A stretch of DNA of 64,000 nt from a phage: the sequence record PV419677.1; one strand, given 5' to 3'. Below, piece by piece: positions 2,825 through 60,756 of the stretch. Both the position numbers and the translations under genes were made by a program. Position 1 is the stretch's first letter; the number at the start of each line of letters is the position of its first letter. Under the pieces are notes generated by a model, which was not told where the DNA came from, did no database searches, and was given only the letters and a program-made list of their open reading frames with translations.

Positions 2825-3571
2825 TTAACCTCTAATCAGTTTAAAAATTGACGCGTTCAAAGGCAGACCACGTTTCAGTTTTAATTTACCAATAAAACCA
2901 ATCTTCTCAAAACGCTCAAGACCTTGAATGATTTTATCATAGCAATCAAAAAGCGTTTCAGCATTAGTTAATTTCTTGGTAACTTTCCAGTCATTACCTT
3001 TGAGCAAGACGTTCAATTTAGTAAGCTCATGACCTTCCGCAATACGGGAACCATCAATGCGAGCCTTCAGAGCAACCATTTTTAATTGGTTTTCTTTGGA
3101 CTGCTCTGATTTACTCATTTGAGCATAATGCTTAACGCGATTCTCACGTTTGTGTTGGATGTTCTTGATATGGGTATATGACTTTTTAATCTGTTCCCAT
3201 TTCTCTGCAGACAGATTTAACTTTTCAATCTTCTTGACAGATGGACGAGCAATTTTTACAGCAACATCATCACGACGTTGTTTAAGCTCATCCAGGGACC
3301 AATCAGAACGCATAGTGTTGTATTTCTTTTTAACAGGAATAACATTACCTTTGATATAACCAATGTCATTGTTAAAACGCTCTAATGATAGCTTCTCACC
3401 TTCAATAGAGTTATTAAATGTTTCACCAGAATAAGCACAAACTTTTTGGTCAAGAATGTTAACCAGGTAATTGAAATCCAGGTTAAAGTCCTTGCCACGA
3501 CGTTTAGCAGAAGCTTGAGTGTGTTCCAGGCGACGTTTAACTTTCAGCGTTTTGGTTTTTGATAAAGTCAT
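2825..3571 (-). CDS. hypothetical early protein at the T4 srd position
   Basis: 248 aa basic protein between dda and modA; identity to Srd inferred from position and size only. Confidence 0.4.
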   Translation of the reverse strand: MTLSKTKTLKVKRRLEHTQASAKRRGKDFNLDFNYLVNILDQKVCAYSGETFNNSIEGEKLSLERFNNDIGYIKGNVIPVKKKYNTMRSDWSLDELKQRRDDVAVKIARPSVKKIEKLNLSAEKWEQIKKSYTHIKNIQHKRENRVKHYAQMSKSEQSKENQLKMVALKARIDGSRIAEGHELTKLNVLLKGNDWKVTKKLTNAETLFDCYDKIIQGLERFEKIGFIGKLKLKRGLPLNASIFKLIRG

Positions 3572-3611
3572 GATATTTTTCTCATCTTACGGACGATTTG
3601 GTAACTCAGTA

Positions 3612-3655
3612 TGGATTCATTATACACCATCCATTAGGTGTGTACACTACTTTTT
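3612..3655 (-). promoter_or_regulatory. T4-type early promoter upstream of the srd-position gene
   Basis: minus strand AAAAAGTAGTGTACA-N16-TATAAT then GAATCCATACTGAGTTACC leader. Confidence 0.55.
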
Positions 3656-3706
3656 CGCCTTTAACGCTTTTATTTTTACTGTGTATAATGGTTCTAAGGT
3701 CTTTGG

Positions 3707-4321
3707 TTAGTTCAAAACAGTCAAATGCCAAACAGTATACAGGTTATTCAATGGGTGTGTTTCAATCAAGTCTACGCGGAGCGTAGTCCCAGCGGGAAAC
3801 ATAAACTCATCTTCATCATTAACCAGGTGCAAGTTTGACTTCCTGGTTGCTTCTGGATATGCACCATTGAACTCTTCAGGAGGAGCACCACAAATCATTT
3901 TGAAGATTGCTTCCTGATAGTTATACGCATATGGTGCATTGTTTATGCAGAAAATATTCCTTGTTCCATAGAAACTGTATGATGCGAAATTTCTTGCAAC
4001 CTGCCAGTCCCTGGAAAAACTCATTACACGATTGAATTCAATTGTTGCCCCAACATATCTTAAATCTTCCAGGTATTCCATAGTTTTCTTTGATATACCA
4101 CGGAACAACGCCGCTGGCGGGGCAGTATTCAGATTGTTGCGGATAATCCTGGACAAGTCTTCTTGAATCAGGTCAGGTTTATTTTCCATACACTGCCAGA
4201 GTACTGATTGCTCATTATCTGTATAAAGAGCATCAATCTCCGCTTGACATTGGTTACGAAAAGACTCACTAGAAGCGGCGGTGTCAATAATTCCATTCAA
4301 AACGTCATCAGTGTATAGCAT
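3707..4321 (-). CDS. modA: ADP-ribosyltransferase, ModA-like
   Basis: R-S-E signature (LFRG, SFS, EDEFMFP); about 204 aa after trimming start to ATG at 4319-4321 with SD; position as T4 modA. Confidence 0.65.
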   Translation of the reverse strand: MLYTDDVLNGIIDTAASSESFRNQCQAEIDALYTDNEQSVLWQCMENKPDLIQEDLSRIIRNNLNTAPPAALFRGISKKTMEYLEDLRYVGATIEFNRVMSFSRDWQVARNFASYSFYGTRNIFCINNAPYAYNYQEAIFKMICGAPPEEFNGAYPEATRKSNLHLVNDEDEFMFPAGTTLRVDLIETHPLNNLYTVWHLTVLN

Positions 4322-15857: not shown

Positions 15858-17267
15858 TTAAAAATCAAACATATCAAAAAGAGATGCTTTTTTCTCGTAA
15901 TCAACCTTAGCTGCTTCAGAGAACCCTGTTAACGGTTTGACAAAAGTCTTCTGGAACAGTGTGTTGTAGTCCATCCACTGCAAGACTTGGTCACGGATTT
16001 CAATCGGGAGTTCAATCCCAGATGGCCATGCAATCACGGTTTCACCAAACGGGTTGCCGACTTTAAGAGGAAGTACATACACCTTTTCCCCTTCCATGAT
16101 TTGTGGAACAGTCTTCAGACCTTTAGTTGCACGCATATATGCAAGCACACCTTTGATATGAGCCGGGCACTTAAATCCAGGGAAACCACCCTCATTATAT
16201 TTCTGAATGTTGTTAACCGATGATACACCTGCGATGGTCATGTAGTTAAGCTCATTAAATTCCTTATTGAATTCCTTGAAGTATGTCTGCAGAGATTCTT
16301 CACCTTCTTGCAGCATGCGACGGATACATTCTTTCAGAGCTTTCTGACATGCTTTTGGTGTGCTCGACTTTTGAGTTTCCAGACCCATGATTTTCAGTTT
16401 CGGAACAGCATATCGTGTGCCTTCCATATCGTACACATTCAGAGCATAACGCTTCTTCGCTGTCCAGAATCCACCAACACCTTTAGAACCAAGCGGAGGA
16501 CATGCAATCGCTTCACGGTCCATAAACATAAGGTGCTGTTTGTTGTTCATGTATTCAGCCAGTTCACGGAAAGCTTTATCGATTGCCGGTTCCAGACGGT
16601 CTTTCGCAAACTTGTCCATGAAGTCAACCAGGTGGTTTGTATCGCGGAATTTCGATTCGCCACCAACCTTTTTAATCAGGTTATCGCACTGGATATAAAT
16701 GGAGTCAGTATCGCCATAGAATACATATGTTTCACCACTTGTACCACAAACACTATCAAAATATTCGTTAACTTTACGCTCAATCCACTGCAATGCAAGT
16801 TGTCCGAAAGATGTAATCGCGGTTGCATTTCGCAGGTCAAAGTAACGGAACCAGATATTTCCCACAATTTTGTTCAGTTGAAGTCGTTAATTTCAACCCG
16901 GAATTATATCCAGCTGCATGTTGCCATGCAGAGCAGACTATATCATCATCTTTCGATGCCATGCGCTTCCAGCCACTTGGCTGTACTCCTTTCGGATAGT
17001 CGTTGCACGTTCCTATAATAGGCTTCGCTCAGGATTGTCTCATAGAGATGTCCCCTGAATTCACATGGTTTAAAGTGCGCCGGAATACTTGGTTAACGCA
17101 CCATAACAACTGTTGATAAGCAATTTGCGGTTAATCTGTGCAGTATTTGCCGCAATTTCTGCCATTTGCGAATTATGCAAATGACTTTCCAAATCCGCCC
17201 TTGATAATGTTTTTAAATATGCAATTTGCGAATCATCAAAATCTATATTATAATCAATATTCATCAT
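15858..17267 (-). CDS. 43: DNA polymerase C-terminal subunit gp43B, two exons: join(15858..16864, 17096..17267) if the intron is spliced
   Basis: exon 1 encodes motif B KLLINSCYGAL, exon 2 encodes GNIWFRY... and motif C YGDTDS; both in the same frame, separated by 231 nt with stops. Confidence 0.75.
16865..17095 (-). other. putative ORF-less group I intron in gene 43
   Basis: exon ends in U pairing with G of an internal GCGCAC guide; R-like CAACGACUAU and S-like GAUAUAGUC can form P7; GNRA hairpin CUGCAUG-GCAA-CAUGCAG; last nucleotide G. Confidence 0.6.
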
Positions 17268-18082
17268 TTATTCCTACAGTTATCAAAATGCCAACGTTTC
17301 ATGCCTGCTAATATACCTTCTTTTCCACAATGTGGACAAACTGCTTTAACCTCTTTTGCTTGTTTCCAATATTCCTTTCTGGCATCAGAAATAGCTTGAT
17401 TGTGTTCATCTGAATTTTTGTGTCCCAATCTGGTTTTAACGATATCTGGATTTTTAGCAACACGTTCTTTCATAAACTCAGATTTCGCTGCACGCATTTC
17501 TGGTGTCCAGGCATCGGAGCATTTTTGTTTGTGGTCGTCGGATATAGTTCCATTTTTCAGCACAGACTCATTGTTCTTATAATGTTCAATTAAACTTTGT
17601 GAACGTTTTTGACAAGTTTCTACCGAGTGTTTTGTTCCAGTATTTTTAATTGAGGCGATTTTAAAATTATCAATTGAAATTTTATTGTAATAATCTGGAT
17701 TTTGGGCCCGGGTATATTTGATACTATCGGAAACCTTTTTGGCAACTACTGGATTATGCATCGCATTTGGTAAATTTAAAGAATTGACATAATCCCACCC
17801 ACCTTTACCACCTGGGGTTAAATTATATGTGTCAGTACGTGTGATAAATTCATTATCAACTAATTTGGCTTCAAGTGCATATGCATCATCTTCGTTATCA
17901 AATTCAGCAATGATTGATTTGACCAGGTTATGCTTGCCATATTTTTCTTTCGCAGCTTTCACAATGGGACCCGAACCCAGATAATCATCCAACAAATTAT
18001 AAGATTCACATTTATGAACTCCAATGTAAATCTTATCGTTCACTAAATTTTTAATTTGATAAACAGTGTATACATTTTTCAT
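17264..18082 (-). CDS. GIY-YIG homing endonuclease (seg-like) inserted in gene 43
   Basis: 272 aa; N-terminal VYQIKNLVNDKIYIG, NLTPGGKGG; C-terminal zinc finger CPHCGKEGILAGMKRWHFDNC; own SD AAGGAG. Confidence 0.7.
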   Translation of the reverse strand: MKNVYTVYQIKNLVNDKIYIGVHKCESYNLLDDYLGSGPIVKAAKEKYGKHNLVKSIIAEFDNEDDAYALEAKLVDNEFITRTDTYNLTPGGKGGWDYVNSLNLPNAMHNPVVAKKVSDSIKYTRAQNPDYYNKISIDNFKIASIKNTGTKHSVETCQKRSQSLIEHYKNNESVLKNGTISDDHKQKCSDAWTPEMRAAKSEFMKERVAKNPDIVKTRLGHKNSDEHNQAISDARKEYWKQAKEVKAVCPHCGKEGILAGMKRWHFDNCRNK

Positions 18083-18104
18083 AATGTCTCCTTAATTTAA
18101 AAAT

Positions 18105-18138
18105 ATTTTAGCGCGCTTCCTTGCGCTTGTACAACTTA
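18105..18138 (-). promoter_or_regulatory. promoter-like element upstream of the gene-43 HEG
   Basis: TTGTACAA -35, 18-nt spacer, TAAAAT -10. Confidence 0.35.
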
Positions 18139-19659
18139 AAGATGGTTTAAAAGGTCTTTAATCAATTCACTATTACGTTGTGCCGCCAACATCTTTTTCT
18201 TTTCGGTTTTTCGTTGATTAAAAACTTTCTCAACTTCTGTCGGAATAATACCTGCAACATCTTTAAAATACATCATGCCATTTGGAGCACAACTAAATGT
18301 ATCAGATGGACGGTCAGCAGTTCCTGCGATGTATTCATACATCGGCGCAGGAGCAAATGAACCGGCAATCGTTTCTGGACTGATGTTAATCTGTCGGATG
18401 ATGCTCGGATACAGAGATGTCAAGTCACAGCTCATAACGTATTTGTATGCGTTCGGAATCGGTTCCTTAACAAATGCACCAGGGAATGATTGACGAACAT
18501 GCGATTTGGTTTCCGGAATGACTTTGTTTTGAGTCTTCAGGCTGTTAAAGATAATCGCATCCCAAGTTTTGATTGGGCTGAATACAGACTGAATCTGCAT
18601 TTTTGCGTAATAACCCATTGACTGGCTAAGGTTAATAAACTGGCGCTTACGGTCAATCTGTACAACACGATAAACATCGATGATGTTATAAGAAATATAC
18701 CGTTGGTGATTTGATTCACGCAGTTTAGAAATCGGACCATCATACGGGAGTTTACCAACACCCAGCTCAGATTCCGCAACATAATCCAACGAATAAGACG
18801 GTTGGTTTGTGAAGCTGAACTTTTTATACAGGTCCAGATAATCCAGAACAGAGATACCCAGAATCTGAATGATTTCTTGTTCTTCACCAAAGCCGTTGTT
18901 AATTACTTTAACTTTTGTACGACGATGTGGGCTCAGACGTTTTGCTGTGGCTTCACCAAATACATTTTTAAGGCGGTTGTAGATATACGGAATATCAAAC
19001 TTCTCGATGTTCCAACCAGTTAACATAACCGGAGTTTTCTCGTTCCAGAATACCAAATACTGCTGGAGCATTTCTTCTTCTGAATCGAAAGCCATATAAA
19101 CAATTTTTTCCAGGATTTCTTCAGGGACTTCATCGCCGCCATCTTCTTGCAGCTTGGCAGCAATATCAATAGACCATTGCTCCACAGTGGCGTATGGTGA
19201 GCTCAAAAGGTCAAAGACATAGAATTTATCGTCTACCGAATCATAGTGCGTCAGGGCATCAATAGGGTGACGTGCTTCAGACGGCTCAGGGAACCCATCC
19301 GGAGATGTCACCTCGATATCGAAGTTAGCCACACGGATTTTACTTGAATCGTATTTGATTTCGTGTGGATAACGGTCGGACAAGTATGCGAGTTTAAAGT
19401 CATCCATACCCATAGCTTCGAGACCCATGTCATTCATTCGCTTCATCCACTGGGATGCATCACGCATGGAATCGAATTCTTTTTTCACACAACCTTTATT
19501 ATAGATGTCTGTATACTTTGCAGCCTGGTCTTCGCGAGCATGCATAAACAAGCATGGAGCATAAGGGATTTCACGAACACGTTCATGACCATTCTTGTCA
19601 ATGTATCGTTCAAGCAGATTGTCACCGATTTGTTCGATAGTTAAATAAAATTCTTGCAT
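18136..19659 (-). CDS. 43: DNA polymerase N-terminal subunit gp43A (N-terminal and 3'-5' exonuclease region)
   Basis: 507 aa; N-terminus MQEFYLTIEQIGDNLLERYID matches remembered T4 gp43; ends in-frame with stop before the HEG. Confidence 0.9.
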   Translation of the reverse strand: MQEFYLTIEQIGDNLLERYIDKNGHERVREIPYAPCLFMHAREDQAAKYTDIYNKGCVKKEFDSMRDASQWMKRMNDMGLEAMGMDDFKLAYLSDRYPHEIKYDSSKIRVANFDIEVTSPDGFPEPSEARHPIDALTHYDSVDDKFYVFDLLSSPYATVEQWSIDIAAKLQEDGGDEVPEEILEKIVYMAFDSEEEMLQQYLVFWNEKTPVMLTGWNIEKFDIPYIYNRLKNVFGEATAKRLSPHRRTKVKVINNGFGEEQEIIQILGISVLDYLDLYKKFSFTNQPSYSLDYVAESELGVGKLPYDGPISKLRESNHQRYISYNIIDVYRVVQIDRKRQFINLSQSMGYYAKMQIQSVFSPIKTWDAIIFNSLKTQNKVIPETKSHVRQSFPGAFVKEPIPNAYKYVMSCDLTSLYPSIIRQINISPETIAGSFAPAPMYEYIAGTADRPSDTFSCAPNGMMYFKDVAGIIPTEVEKVFNQRKTEKKKMLAAQRNSELIKDLLNHL

Positions 19660-20910: not shown

Positions 20911-21878
20911 TTCATTTCCCCAGCCAGTTGAGCAAACAGATAAGTCAAGTGAACTTCGGTATTGGCCGCAATGCCATGGTACTGATTATTCTCACCTACA
21001 ATCTCATACATGCGGATGATACTTGCACCAGTCAGTTTGCCATACATTTCATCAGCCAGCTTTGCAATGAAGCTTGAATAATCATTTGCATGCTTAGGAG
21101 CCAGACCACGGAGAACTTTAAAGTTACGGTCCTTAAGGGCATCAATCACATCATCAATTGGCGTGCGATTGTTTGTCACGATACTCAGAATACCAGAATC
21201 GATAACACCCTTTGCAGAGTAACGGTCAAGCTCGTTAATTGTCTTACGCAGGTCCGGGAAGTTATGCTTAACCAGAGCAGCAACAACTTTCAGGTCTTCG
21301 ATTTCAACGCCTTCGTTTTTACATATCGCAACCGCACGATGAATCATCTCTTTCATCATAGTAGTCTGGTCAGCTGGAGTTGCTTCACCAAACTTAATTA
21401 CGCGACAACGAGACTGCAACGGAGTAATGATGCCATCGATATTGTTCGCGGTCATAATGATTGAACAGTTGCTCGAATAAGCTTCCATAAAGCTACGGAG
21501 GTGTCGTTGTGATTCTGCCAGACCTGCACGGTCGAACTCATCGATAACAATTACCTTACGGCGACCTTCGATTGATTTGGATGATGCAAAGCGAGTCAAT
21601 TCATTACGCACAAAGTCAATTCGGCAATCGGAGCCGTTAACAAACAGCATATCAGAATTCGTATCTGCGCACATAGCTTTTGCAACTGTTGTCTTACCAG
21701 TACCAGGGGAACTACTGACCAGAATCAAGTTAGGAATCAAACCTTTTTTAACAATCGCCTCTAATGTTTCTTTATCGTGAGCCGGGAGAATACACTCTGA
21801 TAATGTACCTGGGCGGTATTTTTGTTCCCACATGAAGTCGGATTCGTTGACTGTCAAACCGTTAATTACTGTTGCCAT
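20901..21878 (-). CDS. 44: clamp loader large subunit gp44 (AAA+)
   Basis: Walker A SPGTGKTT, DEFDR Walker B; start trimmed to an internal Met. Confidence 0.9.
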   Translation of the reverse strand: MATVINGLTVNESDFMWEQKYRPGTLSECILPAHDKETLEAIVKKGLIPNLILVSSSPGTGKTTVAKAMCADTNSDMLFVNGSDCRIDFVRNELTRFASSKSIEGRRKVIVIDEFDRAGLAESQRHLRSFMEAYSSNCSIIMTANNIDGIITPLQSRCRVIKFGEATPADQTTMMKEMIHRAVAICKNEGVEIEDLKVVAALVKHNFPDLRKTINELDRYSAKGVIDSGILSIVTNNRTPIDDVIDALKDRNFKVLRGLAPKHANDYSSFIAKLADEMYGKLTGASIIRMYEIVGENNQYHGIAANTEVHLTYLFAQLAGEMKWL

Positions 21879-22439
21879 TATTATTTTCCTCATTAAATTT
21901 TTTAACTATTTTATTCAATTCATTGGCTGAATAATTATACCCATAGTTCCGCAAAAGCGTACTGAACTTACCGCGCTTTGGTTTATCCAGCTCTATCCAA
22001 ATTTTTAACAGTTCATCATAGTGATTCCAAACTTCAGAACGCTGCCATAACGAACAATTCAATTTATGTGTTTTACTAAATGTTCGAGATACACCAGTAC
22101 GTGATTCAGACATTTGTCTACGAGTTTCTTCTGTATGAAAATCAACTCCACCATTACCGCCTGGATGAACATTAACACATTTATTTCCATATTCAATAAG
22201 ACCTTTGGCAACAATCAAAGATTCATAGTGTTTAGCTTCTTTGAAAGTTTTTACTTCTTTAATAATTTTTGTATCGAATAACCAAAGCCCAGGAATTAAA
22301 TCATTTTCTTTTCGACAAGCTTTAATAAACGTTCCACTGCCGTGATATTCTTCACCGGTCAAACGATGTCTACCAAAATAATGATAAACATCGTTTGATG
22401 CAGTATTTGTTATTTTTGTATGATAACAAATGTATGACA
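21862..22439 (-). CDS. GIY-YIG homing endonuclease (seg-like) between genes 45 and 44
   Basis: start at ATG 22437-22439 with GGAG SD; SYICY...VYHYFG, YHGSG and NVHPGGNGG motifs shared with the gene-43 HEG. Confidence 0.55.
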
Positions 22440-22471
22440 TTTTATTCTCCATGGGGCCGAAGCCCCATTTA

Positions 22472-23167
22472 TTAATCTTGGAATTCGTGGCTAGAGCCTT
22501 GTTCCATCGCAATCACATAGCTTGCTTGTGTGCCTTCAAACTTCGTAGCAAATTTATCATCTTTCGCCCAAAGCATAACACGGTAATCAGCCGGAATCAT
22601 TTTCATGTTCAGTTTGTTAATGATAAATTTAAACGCTGCATCGCCTTCGTAGTCGCCACATACCAGGGAATACAATGGACGTGCTAATTCTTTATCTTCG
22701 AGCTGGTTATAACCATGGATAACAATCTTACCGTCTTTGTTGGTGATTGCAAAGGTGTCCAGAGACAAACCACCAGCCACACGCAGAAGCTGCTGCAGGT
22801 CACTACCTTTCAGGTCGAAAATAACCTTAGCTACCGGGAAAGGAATCTTTTTAGCAGGGAACACGATAGTGCTCGGGTCTGCAGCTGGCCAGTGAATCGT
22901 TGAACGTTGGTCTTTGATAATGATGTTTGATGCGTCTTCAGCCAGAGATACTTCAGCTTGGTCAGTTACCAGGCCCAGGATACTTAAGAAGCCGTTCAGG
23001 TCATAAATCGCAGCTTCAAAGTCAATTGTATCATTGATTTCGGCTTCGCCATATGACGCTCCAGTTACGGAACGAGTCAGGATGGTATTACCTGGCTTAA
23101 GCATAATGCCAGAGTAAATGGAAGTAAAGTTTTTCAATACCGCGATTGTGTCCTTTGAGAATTTCAT
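22472..23167 (-). CDS. 45: sliding clamp gp45
   Basis: 231 aa; MKFSKDT...LKNF...GIMLK colinear with remembered T4 gp45. Confidence 0.9.
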   Translation of the reverse strand: MKFSKDTIAVLKNFTSIYSGIMLKPGNTILTRSVTGASYGEAEINDTIDFEAAIYDLNGFLSILGLVTDQAEVSLAEDASNIIIKDQRSTIHWPAADPSTIVFPAKKIPFPVAKVIFDLKGSDLQQLLRVAGGLSLDTFAITNKDGKIVIHGYNQLEDKELARPLYSLVCGDYEGDAAFKFIINKLNMKMIPADYRVMLWAKDDKFATKFEGTQASYVIAMEQGSSHEFQD

Positions 23168-60360: not shown

Positions 60361-60599
60361 TGCTCGGCTTACGGCAAAGATATTCCCTCGAATCGATAAT
60401 TCTGTGCGCCGTTTCAGCTGTGATATAAGGGGACATCAACAAATCGTAAAGATTTATTAATGCCAGTCCTTAAACAGGGAACTTCAGTCCGACGACTTAC
60501 CGGTAGCGACCCGGTTTCTTGTTTGTTGCGCCGGTGAATGCTGATAATCAGTCTTCATACGACGGCTTGACTATATAATAGTCTTCATTTGGTATCCCG

Positions 60600-60674
60600 C
60601 CCTGGGATCGAACCAGGACCGCAAACTTAGAAGGATCGTATGCTATCCATTACACCAGCGGGACATAGTTGGTG
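60600..60674 (-). tRNA. tRNA-Arg (anticodon UCU)
   Basis: hand-folded cloverleaf: acceptor GTCCCGC/GCGGGAT, anticodon loop CTTCTAA, T-loop TTCGATC, encoded CCA. Confidence 0.75.
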
Positions 60675-60679
60675 ACCCA

Positions 60680-60756
60680 GACCAGATTTGAACTGGTAAC
60701 CTTTCCCTTATGAGGGGACTGCTGCTAACCATTGAGCTACAGGGCCTTAATTCTAT
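60680..60756 (-). tRNA. tRNA with anticodon CAU (Ile2 or Met type)
   Basis: hand-folded: acceptor GGCCCTG/CTGGGTC, anticodon loop CTCATAA, T-arm ACCAG-TTCAAAT-CTGGT, encoded CCA. Confidence 0.65.

Follow-up and report, generated by a model that had tools for sequence, protein, structure and literature searches.

Gene 43 of Aeromonas phage 25 is the closest described counterpart of the locus treated in this work. According to the reviews that summarise the study of Petrov, Ratnayaka and Karam (2010, J Mol Biol), its parts are a short intercistronic sequence, a free-standing endonuclease gene, and an intron without an endonuclease of its own that was predicted to use the free-standing enzyme, and the two gene products, gp43A and gp43B, co-purify with polymerase activity (PMC2988022, PMC2993671, PMC2677866). 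The phage 25 record itself is annotated as 43A, a GIY-YIG endonuclease, and 43B "split by group IA2 intron." T4 and RB69-type coliphages had been classed as monocistronic for gp43. Here, we analysed a stretch of 64,000 nucleotides (nt) of phage DNA (sequence record PV419677.1; hereafter the window) in which gene 43, which encodes gp43, a DNA polymerase of the PolB type, is divided into the cistrons 43A and 43B, with a free-standing GIY-YIG homing endonuclease gene between them and a group I intron without an open reading frame (ORF) in motif B of 43B. We consider it probable that the locus is a coliphage representative of the phage 25-type gene 43 system, that is, a two-chain PolB with an endonuclease gene at the fingertip, an intron in motif B, and collaborative homing.

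The fingertip is the place where natural and engineered PolB splits are tolerated, and in phages 44RR, 31, 65, and 133 as well as in engineered split Pfu, the two chains assemble without ligation (PMC3061061). These four phages share the fingertip split with the window, but unlike the window they have either just a short spacer or inserts that are unrelated and reach up to 3 kb. Collaborative, or trans, homing has been described for the cyanophage psbA intron with F-CphI (Zeng, Bonocora, and Shub 2009) and for T4 mobE with the nrdB intron (PMC2988022). As in both of these systems, a free-standing endonuclease gene in the window adjoins an endonuclease-less intron that interrupts the presumed target, and the layout fits the remark of a preliminary description of this DNA that the arrangement is reminiscent of collaborative homing. 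Unlike in both, the endonuclease gene lies inside the host gene, which is split into two cistrons, and the cleavage site is a presumed one.

Results

Layout of gene 43 in the window

The preliminary description had 43A ending with its own stop after 507 amino acids (aa), a 272-aa GIY-YIG gene with a Shine-Dalgarno (SD) sequence between the cistrons, a stop of that gene overlapping the 43B start, an intron in motif B about 170 nt further downstream, and about 899 aa for 43A plus spliced 43B. Each of these points was confirmed (Table 1): the 43A ORF ends in TAA, the endonuclease matches PF01541 and its SD (AAGGAG) lies 5 nt ahead of the ATG, its TGA overlaps the 43B ATG at 17267 (ATGA), 168 nt lie between the endonuclease stop and the 5' splice site of the intron, and spliced 43B has 392 aa, which gives 507 + 392 = 899 aa, compared with 904 aa in SP18 and 903 aa in RB69 for uninterrupted gp43. 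A second in-frame ATG directly follows the first, at 17264, and may be the real start of 43B, because 43B of phages TH15 and G2285 begins with MN. 43A matches residues 1-504 of RB69 gp43 (E 1.5e-266) and residues 2-392 of spliced 43B match residues 514-903 (E 2.5e-196), which places the split between RB69 residues 504 and 514 at the tip of the fingers domain, where it aligns with the split point of phage 25. Motif B itself reads INSCYGAL in the Gapriverviruses (the window, SP18, and TH15) and INSLYGAL in RB69, T4, and most relatives; the Cys that replaces Leu sits in the nucleotide-binding helix.

Table 1. Positions of gene 43 elements and other features of the window, and stop-initiated gaps in related PolB loci
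Feature	Position	Strand	Description
43A cistron	19659..18136	minus	507 aa, own TAA stop; N-terminal, exonuclease, and first palm segments and first fingers helix of PolB
Intercistronic untranslated spacer	18135..18083	minus	53 nt; hairpin and SD AAGGAG of the endonuclease gene
Spacer hairpin	18127..18110	minus	AGCGC-N8-GCGCT
Free-standing GIY-YIG homing endonuclease gene	18082..17264	minus	272 aa
43B exon 1	17267..17096	minus	Second fingers helix including motif B (KLLINSCYGA-L)
Motif B	17114..17106	minus	INSCYGAL in Gapriverviruses
ORF-less group I intron	17095..16865	minus	231 nt
Internal guide of the intron	17080..17075		GCGCAC
43B exon 2	16864..15858	minus	Palm motif C and thumb
Apparently mobile cassette	18240..16865	minus	~1376 nt; 43A tail, spacer, endonuclease gene, 43B exon 1, intron
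Low-GC ORF between genes 45 and 44	21862..22512	minus	216 aa; GC 0.31-0.34
Two adjacent tRNA genes	60593..60746	minus	Rfam RF00005, 48.8 and 53.9 bits
Gap in L099 (1351), L101 (1062), L184-L187			GGT TAACTAA GGT
Gap in L172 (908)			GGT TGAATAA GGT
Gap in L182, L183, L188			GGC TGAATAA GGT
Gap in L065 (2806)			GGA TGACTAA GGT
Gap in L015 (3927)			GCC TGAATAA GCT
Gap in L027 (1127)			GGT TAACTACT GGT
Gap in L095 (4417)			GCG TGACCCGG GCT
Gap in L170 (1091)			GGT TAA GGC

The endonuclease and its spacer

The endonuclease has an N-terminal GIY...YIG segment, the conserved Glu and Asn, and a separate C-terminal region, as GIY-YIG homing endonucleases do, and its Pfam PF01541 match lies just above the cut-off (23.0 against 22.6 bits). 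All members of the family alignment (15 homologues) share residues Y8, Y19, G21, E71, Y86, and N87, the C-terminus carries a conserved zinc-finger-like motif (CPHC...WHFxxC), and a clear equivalent of I-TevI R27 could not be located in this alignment. It is not an intron-encoded enzyme of the I-TevI type, as its gene lies upstream of the intron with exon 1 between them. Full-length homologues were found in phage 25 (39.5% aa identity by tblastn over residues 4-272, 99% of the length, E 3e-54), in gene 43 of phiAS4 and Aes508 (46%), and in G2285 (62.5%), and the Aes512 enzyme belongs to the same family. The dN/dS ratio between the window and G2285 endonucleases is 0.12, and the GC content of the endonuclease region is 0.32-0.35, compared with 0.40-0.46 in the exons. 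The endonuclease is under purifying selection and looks functional. The preliminary description also held that this gene had split gene 43; its position between the cistrons stands, but its role as the cause of the split is not established, because TH15 has the same split with a different GIY-YIG gene, and the Aeromonas phages UP87 and AS-gz have a split gene 43 with no endonuclease at all.

A promoter-like element had likewise been assigned to the endonuclease gene, and this assignment did not hold: the element is a 9/12 match to the sigma-70 consensus, and the region has 16 such matches compared with 12.0 +/- 3.2 in shuffled sequences. The stability of the spacer hairpin equals that of shuffles (z = 0.07), and a T4 late promoter (TATAAATA) was looked for near the endonuclease gene and not found. 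A promoter of its own, a terminator, and a hairpin sequestering the ribosome-binding site were all rejected for the spacer, each being at chance level. At the position of the spacer, G2285 and the Aeromonas phages 25, UP87, and AS-gz have a hairpin too, of unrelated sequence.

The group I intron

The intron matches the full Rfam RF00028 model with 81.4 bits (E 3e-20), its P3-P9 core lying above the gathering score of 50. It interrupts the Leu codon of motif B after the first base (YGA/L, the slash marking the junction here and below), with the 5' splice site after a U (GGUGCGU/UAACC) and the intron ending in ...AAAAUUG/UGGGAAAU. In P1, GUGCGU pairs with the internal guide GCGCAC, the pair at the splice site being U.G, and the terminal intron base is G, as in group I introns. 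The 231 nt contain no ORF. Across eight aligned gene-43 introns (the window and seven homologues), compensatory changes occur in 21 of the 55 consensus pairs, and two compensatory P1 pairs follow the exon, with GGUGCGU and GCGCAC in one lineage and GGAGCUU and GAGCUCC in another. Judged from these features, the intron looks functional, and its structure is conserved. A scan of IMG/VR for the exact 5' junction of the intron gave no matches.

Comparison with phage 25

The preliminary description had regarded the combination of a split gene 43 with a motif B intron as unusual; this was not borne out, as all three elements recur in phage 25 at matching positions. The fingertip split, a homologous GIY-YIG endonuclease, and an ORF-less intron at motif B are all present in the window, and the order of the parts is that of phage 25 (IC-UTS, seg43(25)/helc25, and intron 25.g43B). 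The phage 25 intron is also ORF-less, is homologous (81% identity over shared columns), has the same P1, and is inserted at the identical nucleotide of the YGA-L codon (TATGGTGCGT/TAA...G/TGGGTAAC; shared insertion TATGGTGCGT/TAA...G/TGGG). In both phages, the endonuclease gene abuts the start of 43B, with a 2-nt gap in phage 25 and an overlap in the window. The two systems differ in that the window belongs to the Tevenvirinae (Gaprivervirus) of E. coli and phage 25 is a Tulanevirus of Aeromonas, the intron measures 231 nt instead of 347 nt and lacks the large P6-region extension, the spacer sequences are unrelated, and the endonucleases are only 39.5% identical. Aeromonas phage Aes508 (L011, 952-6274) has a gene 43 that is interrupted four times: by the fingertip split and its endonuclease, by the intron in motif B, and by a split intein whose halves flank a gene for a VSR-like endonuclease. 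GenBank already annotates each of these interruptions.

Distribution among coliphages

The window is an SP18/VR7-like coliphage of the genus Gaprivervirus with at most 97.6% identity to database genomes, and about 30 relatives, including SP18, VR7, and VR20, have an uninterrupted gene 43 of 2715 nt. The 43A DNA is 95.8% identical to SP18 gene 43 up to about position 18240 and diverges after it, and exon 2 is 96.1% identical to SP18 from immediately behind the splice site. Identity to SP18 is lower (66-90%) in the last ~100 nt of 43A and in exon 1 than in the other exon sequence (96%), exon 1 being only 77-90% identical to TH15 and SP18. The codons at the splice site are GCG TTG GGA in the window and GCT CTG GGY in intron-less Gaprivervirus alleles.

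The whole set also occurs in the Mosigvirus vB_EcoM_G2285 (MK327933), the layout and total length of which (3802 nt) are identical to those of the window, in a different genus and with exons only 74-76% identical. The annotation of its record reads "unable to determine intron/exon boundaries" and does not recognise the set, which also goes undiscussed in the source paper. The Dhakavirus PSD2002 (L004, OK335775) has the intron (4065-4294) in an unsplit gene 43 without the endonuclease; this gene is annotated as two separate "DNA polymerase" coding sequences. The introns of G2285 and PSD2002 are 89-90% identical to that of the window, and their exons are 74-79% identical. The Gaprivervirus TH15 (L003, MT446392) has the same fingertip split with a different, 232-aa GIY-YIG gene (3012-3709) and no intron, and its 43A tail is identical to that of the window over ~90 nt before the final codons; the GIY-YIG gene is of the SegE/NUMOD3 type and overlaps the cistrons at both ends, and the record is unannotated. 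Split, endonuclease, and intron occur in varying combinations among coliphages as they do among Aeromonas phages. The set is new in the SP18-like Gaprivervirus lineage, and a Mosigvirus, G2285, carrying the same set is also new. Phage C6 was considered as a further split allele and was rejected, its gene being uninterrupted. An import of the fingertip module from Aeromonas phages, considered for the seemingly shared motifs EKK.ML and YL.TLS, was rejected as unsupported, because tblastn with the 43B N-terminus ranks TH15 and G2285 first, followed by monocistronic enterobacterial phages and not by Aeromonas phages.

Recent movement of the cassette

The exact endonuclease protein was found in four other assemblies (ENA ERZ27275844, SRR14369232, SRR9943764, and DRR251916), all of which have the same layout. 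Contigs L007, L008, and L009 show 0-1 mismatches in the ~1376-nt tract from about 18240 to 16865, whereas the polymerase exons that flank it are 3-6% different; for L008, the figures are 1/1376 nt inside the tract compared with 64/1097 nt of flank. The 557 nt of the cassette outside the endonuclease ORF also have 0-1 mismatches in these three contigs. Contig L010 has six mismatches in the 43A tail and one in the endonuclease gene, and it has no 5' flank to compare. On the right, the tract ends no more than 5 nt (L008) or 58 nt (L007 and L009) away from the 3' splice site; on the left, its end varies. The cassette appears to have been transferred recently and en bloc and to be spreading among E. 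coli phages, and such a mosaic would fit gene conversion begun near the intron site.

Stop-initiated gaps in related loci

In uncultured phages, further members of the endonuclease family lie between 43A-like and 43B-like PolB ORFs, and several of these loci have no intron. In the intron-less related loci, the Gly or Ala codon of YGAL(G/A) is instead followed at once by a gap of 3-8 nt, which lies 5 nt from the intron site (Table 1); such a stop-initiated gap is absent from the window. All listed gaps run from a sense codon to a stop, 0-5 nt, a synonymous codon, and then the correct frame, so that the protein has the right length if the flanking residue is decoded once. The flanking codons covary (Gly/Gly or Ala/Ala), and the downstream frame opens exactly at the second of them with no start codon nearby, the exception being a GTG in L095. 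Between L099 and L101, 12 of the 30 post-gap codons differ, all 12 of them synonymously and none non-synonymously; the post-gap frame is under purifying selection. The gap is kept where the endonuclease is a remnant or absent. Simple +1/-1 frameshifting, stop-codon reassignment, and reinitiation were rejected as explanations of the gaps, because +1 shifting meets a second stop, the gaps shift by either +1 or +2, and the frame that opens at the landing codon has no start apart from the GTG in L095. Our hypothesis is that the gaps are candidate sites of programmed ribosomal bypass that would stand in for the intron, with a candidate junction peptide such as LNSLFGALGNEYFR. No description of bypass in a phage polymerase was found in the literature searched.

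Peptide-pattern scans of IMG/VR and JGI metagenomes derived from the endonuclease alignment returned mostly generic Seg-like endonucleases and one close family member. Contig L097 (SRR20950736; 1-430, 1388-1509) has a 52%-identical endonuclease and a motif B intron. A second intron, related to the first, seemingly lies just upstream of YPSIIRQ (motif A). Intron sequence recurs at the ends of the contig, and the assembly may be collapsed.

Other features of the window

The 216-aa ORF between genes 45 and 44 has Seg-like N-terminal features and a weak NUMOD3 match, and of ~34 related genomes, that of phage VR20 alone shares it (99.4% identical). It probably encodes a further free-standing homing endonuclease. 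Two tRNA genes are listed in Table 1.

Discussion

The phage 25 enzyme reportedly cuts intron-free alleles of 43B. In the mechanism that we propose, the window endonuclease would, during a mixed infection, attack gene 43 alleles that lack the intron, cutting them in or close to the motif B site, and the copy of its own phage would be protected because the intron breaks this site. Recombinational repair would then give the recipient a copy of the donor tract that reaches from the endonuclease gene through the intron, and intron splicing together with non-covalent assembly of gp43A and gp43B would keep the polymerase functional. The anatomy of the locus, its homology to the parts of phage 25, the conserved intron structure, the purifying selection on the endonuclease, and the en bloc sharing of the cassette across diverged backgrounds of Gaprivervirus speak for this mechanism. 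Several points weigh against it. For the window phage, we infer cleavage specificity, splicing, and subunit assembly from sequence, and with ~40% identity to the phage 25 enzyme, the specificity of the window enzyme could differ. Motif B is uninterrupted and of divergent sequence in locus L096, which has an endonuclease of the family; it is also uninterrupted in TH15, where the GIY-YIG enzyme at the same split is a more distant relative. The contigs sharing the tract were picked by exact identity of the endonuclease protein, which means that part of the identity is there by construction; L007 and L009 share a background, which leaves only ~3 independent recipients; and free recombination of T4-like phages could make such a mosaic without any endonuclease cutting.

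Seg-type enzymes usually cleave DNA close to where their own gene is inserted (PMC2988022), and if the window enzyme did so, its target would be its own fingertip insertion site, as in classical intron-less Seg-type homing, and the intron would be a co-conversion passenger or an older independent resident. PSD2002, with an intron but neither endonuclease nor split, indicates that the intron can exist alone, and TH15 and L096 have an endonuclease at the fingertip position and no intron. However, all five contigs with the window endonuclease allele also have the intron, the shared tract stops at the 3' edge of the intron, and the motif B site ~170 nt downstream is interrupted, by an intron or a short gap, in nearly every locus of the endonuclease family, and we consider targeting of the fingertip unlikely. 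It also seems very unlikely that the cassette has become fixed as a relic whose endonuclease is inactive or domesticated, in which case the identical tract would reflect recent common ancestry and the flanks would have been swapped by ordinary homologous recombination. T4-like genomes are indeed highly mosaic, the related lineages L184, L186, and L187 show endonuclease decay with the split kept, and the contigs were ascertained through the endonuclease, but the window ORF is intact and full length with its catalytic residues conserved and a low dN/dS, the right edge of the tract lies at the intron end in independent backgrounds, and the intron is ~90% identical across three genera whose exons are at 74-79%.

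A single full-length polymerase could in principle be restored by protein trans-splicing through a split intein, as Aes508 has one elsewhere in gene 43, or by ribosomal bypass of the inserted gene, as bypassing exists in T4 gene 60. This is extremely improbable in the window: 43A ends at about RB69 residues 504-506 and 43B starts at about 513-514, so that the cistron ends lie ~9 residues apart with no extra residues and no room for intein halves of ~100 and 35 aa, and a bypass would have to cross an 872-nt interval with an intact conserved ORF. A split intein or single polypeptide was rejected on these lengths.

Returning to the phage 25-type system with collaborative homing, we suggest, with slightly more doubt than confidence, that the window cassette may be one form of a wider and apparently undescribed set of elements at the PolB fingertip, in which the motif B target is interrupted either by an intron or, in uncultured T4-like phages, by a 3-8-nt gap that would have to be decoded by ribosomal hopping. 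T4 gene 60 reportedly carries a bypass cassette together with mobA. The related loci, though not the window, resemble it in that an endonuclease splits an essential gene with a short untranslated insert just downstream, and in that this insert begins with a stop, lies between matching codons, and is kept after endonuclease decay. They differ from it in the length of the gap (3-8 nt instead of 50 nt, or 20 nt in one clade), in the gene (PolB and not topoisomerase), in the GIY-YIG family of the endonuclease, and in that bypass is only a candidate. A 2022 preprint called the gene 60 bypass cassette unique and did not mention polymerases (bioRxiv 10.1101/2022.08.31.505936). If our suggestion is true, T4 gene 60/mobA would be joined by a second natural system that pairs an endonuclease with bypass.

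The phage 25-type combination of split polymerase, endonuclease, and intron is now placed in T-even-type coliphages, which is a modest but real gain. Homologous elements are found in phages of different host genera, where a 2010 review had seen no convincing evidence for the spread of such elements, and the shared tract offers what appears to be a sequence footprint of recent en bloc transfer. With E. coli as the host, standard T4 genetics can be brought to bear on collaborative homing and on how a replicase of two chains assembles. The stop-initiated gaps at the motif B site would matter more than the window cassette, if confirmed.

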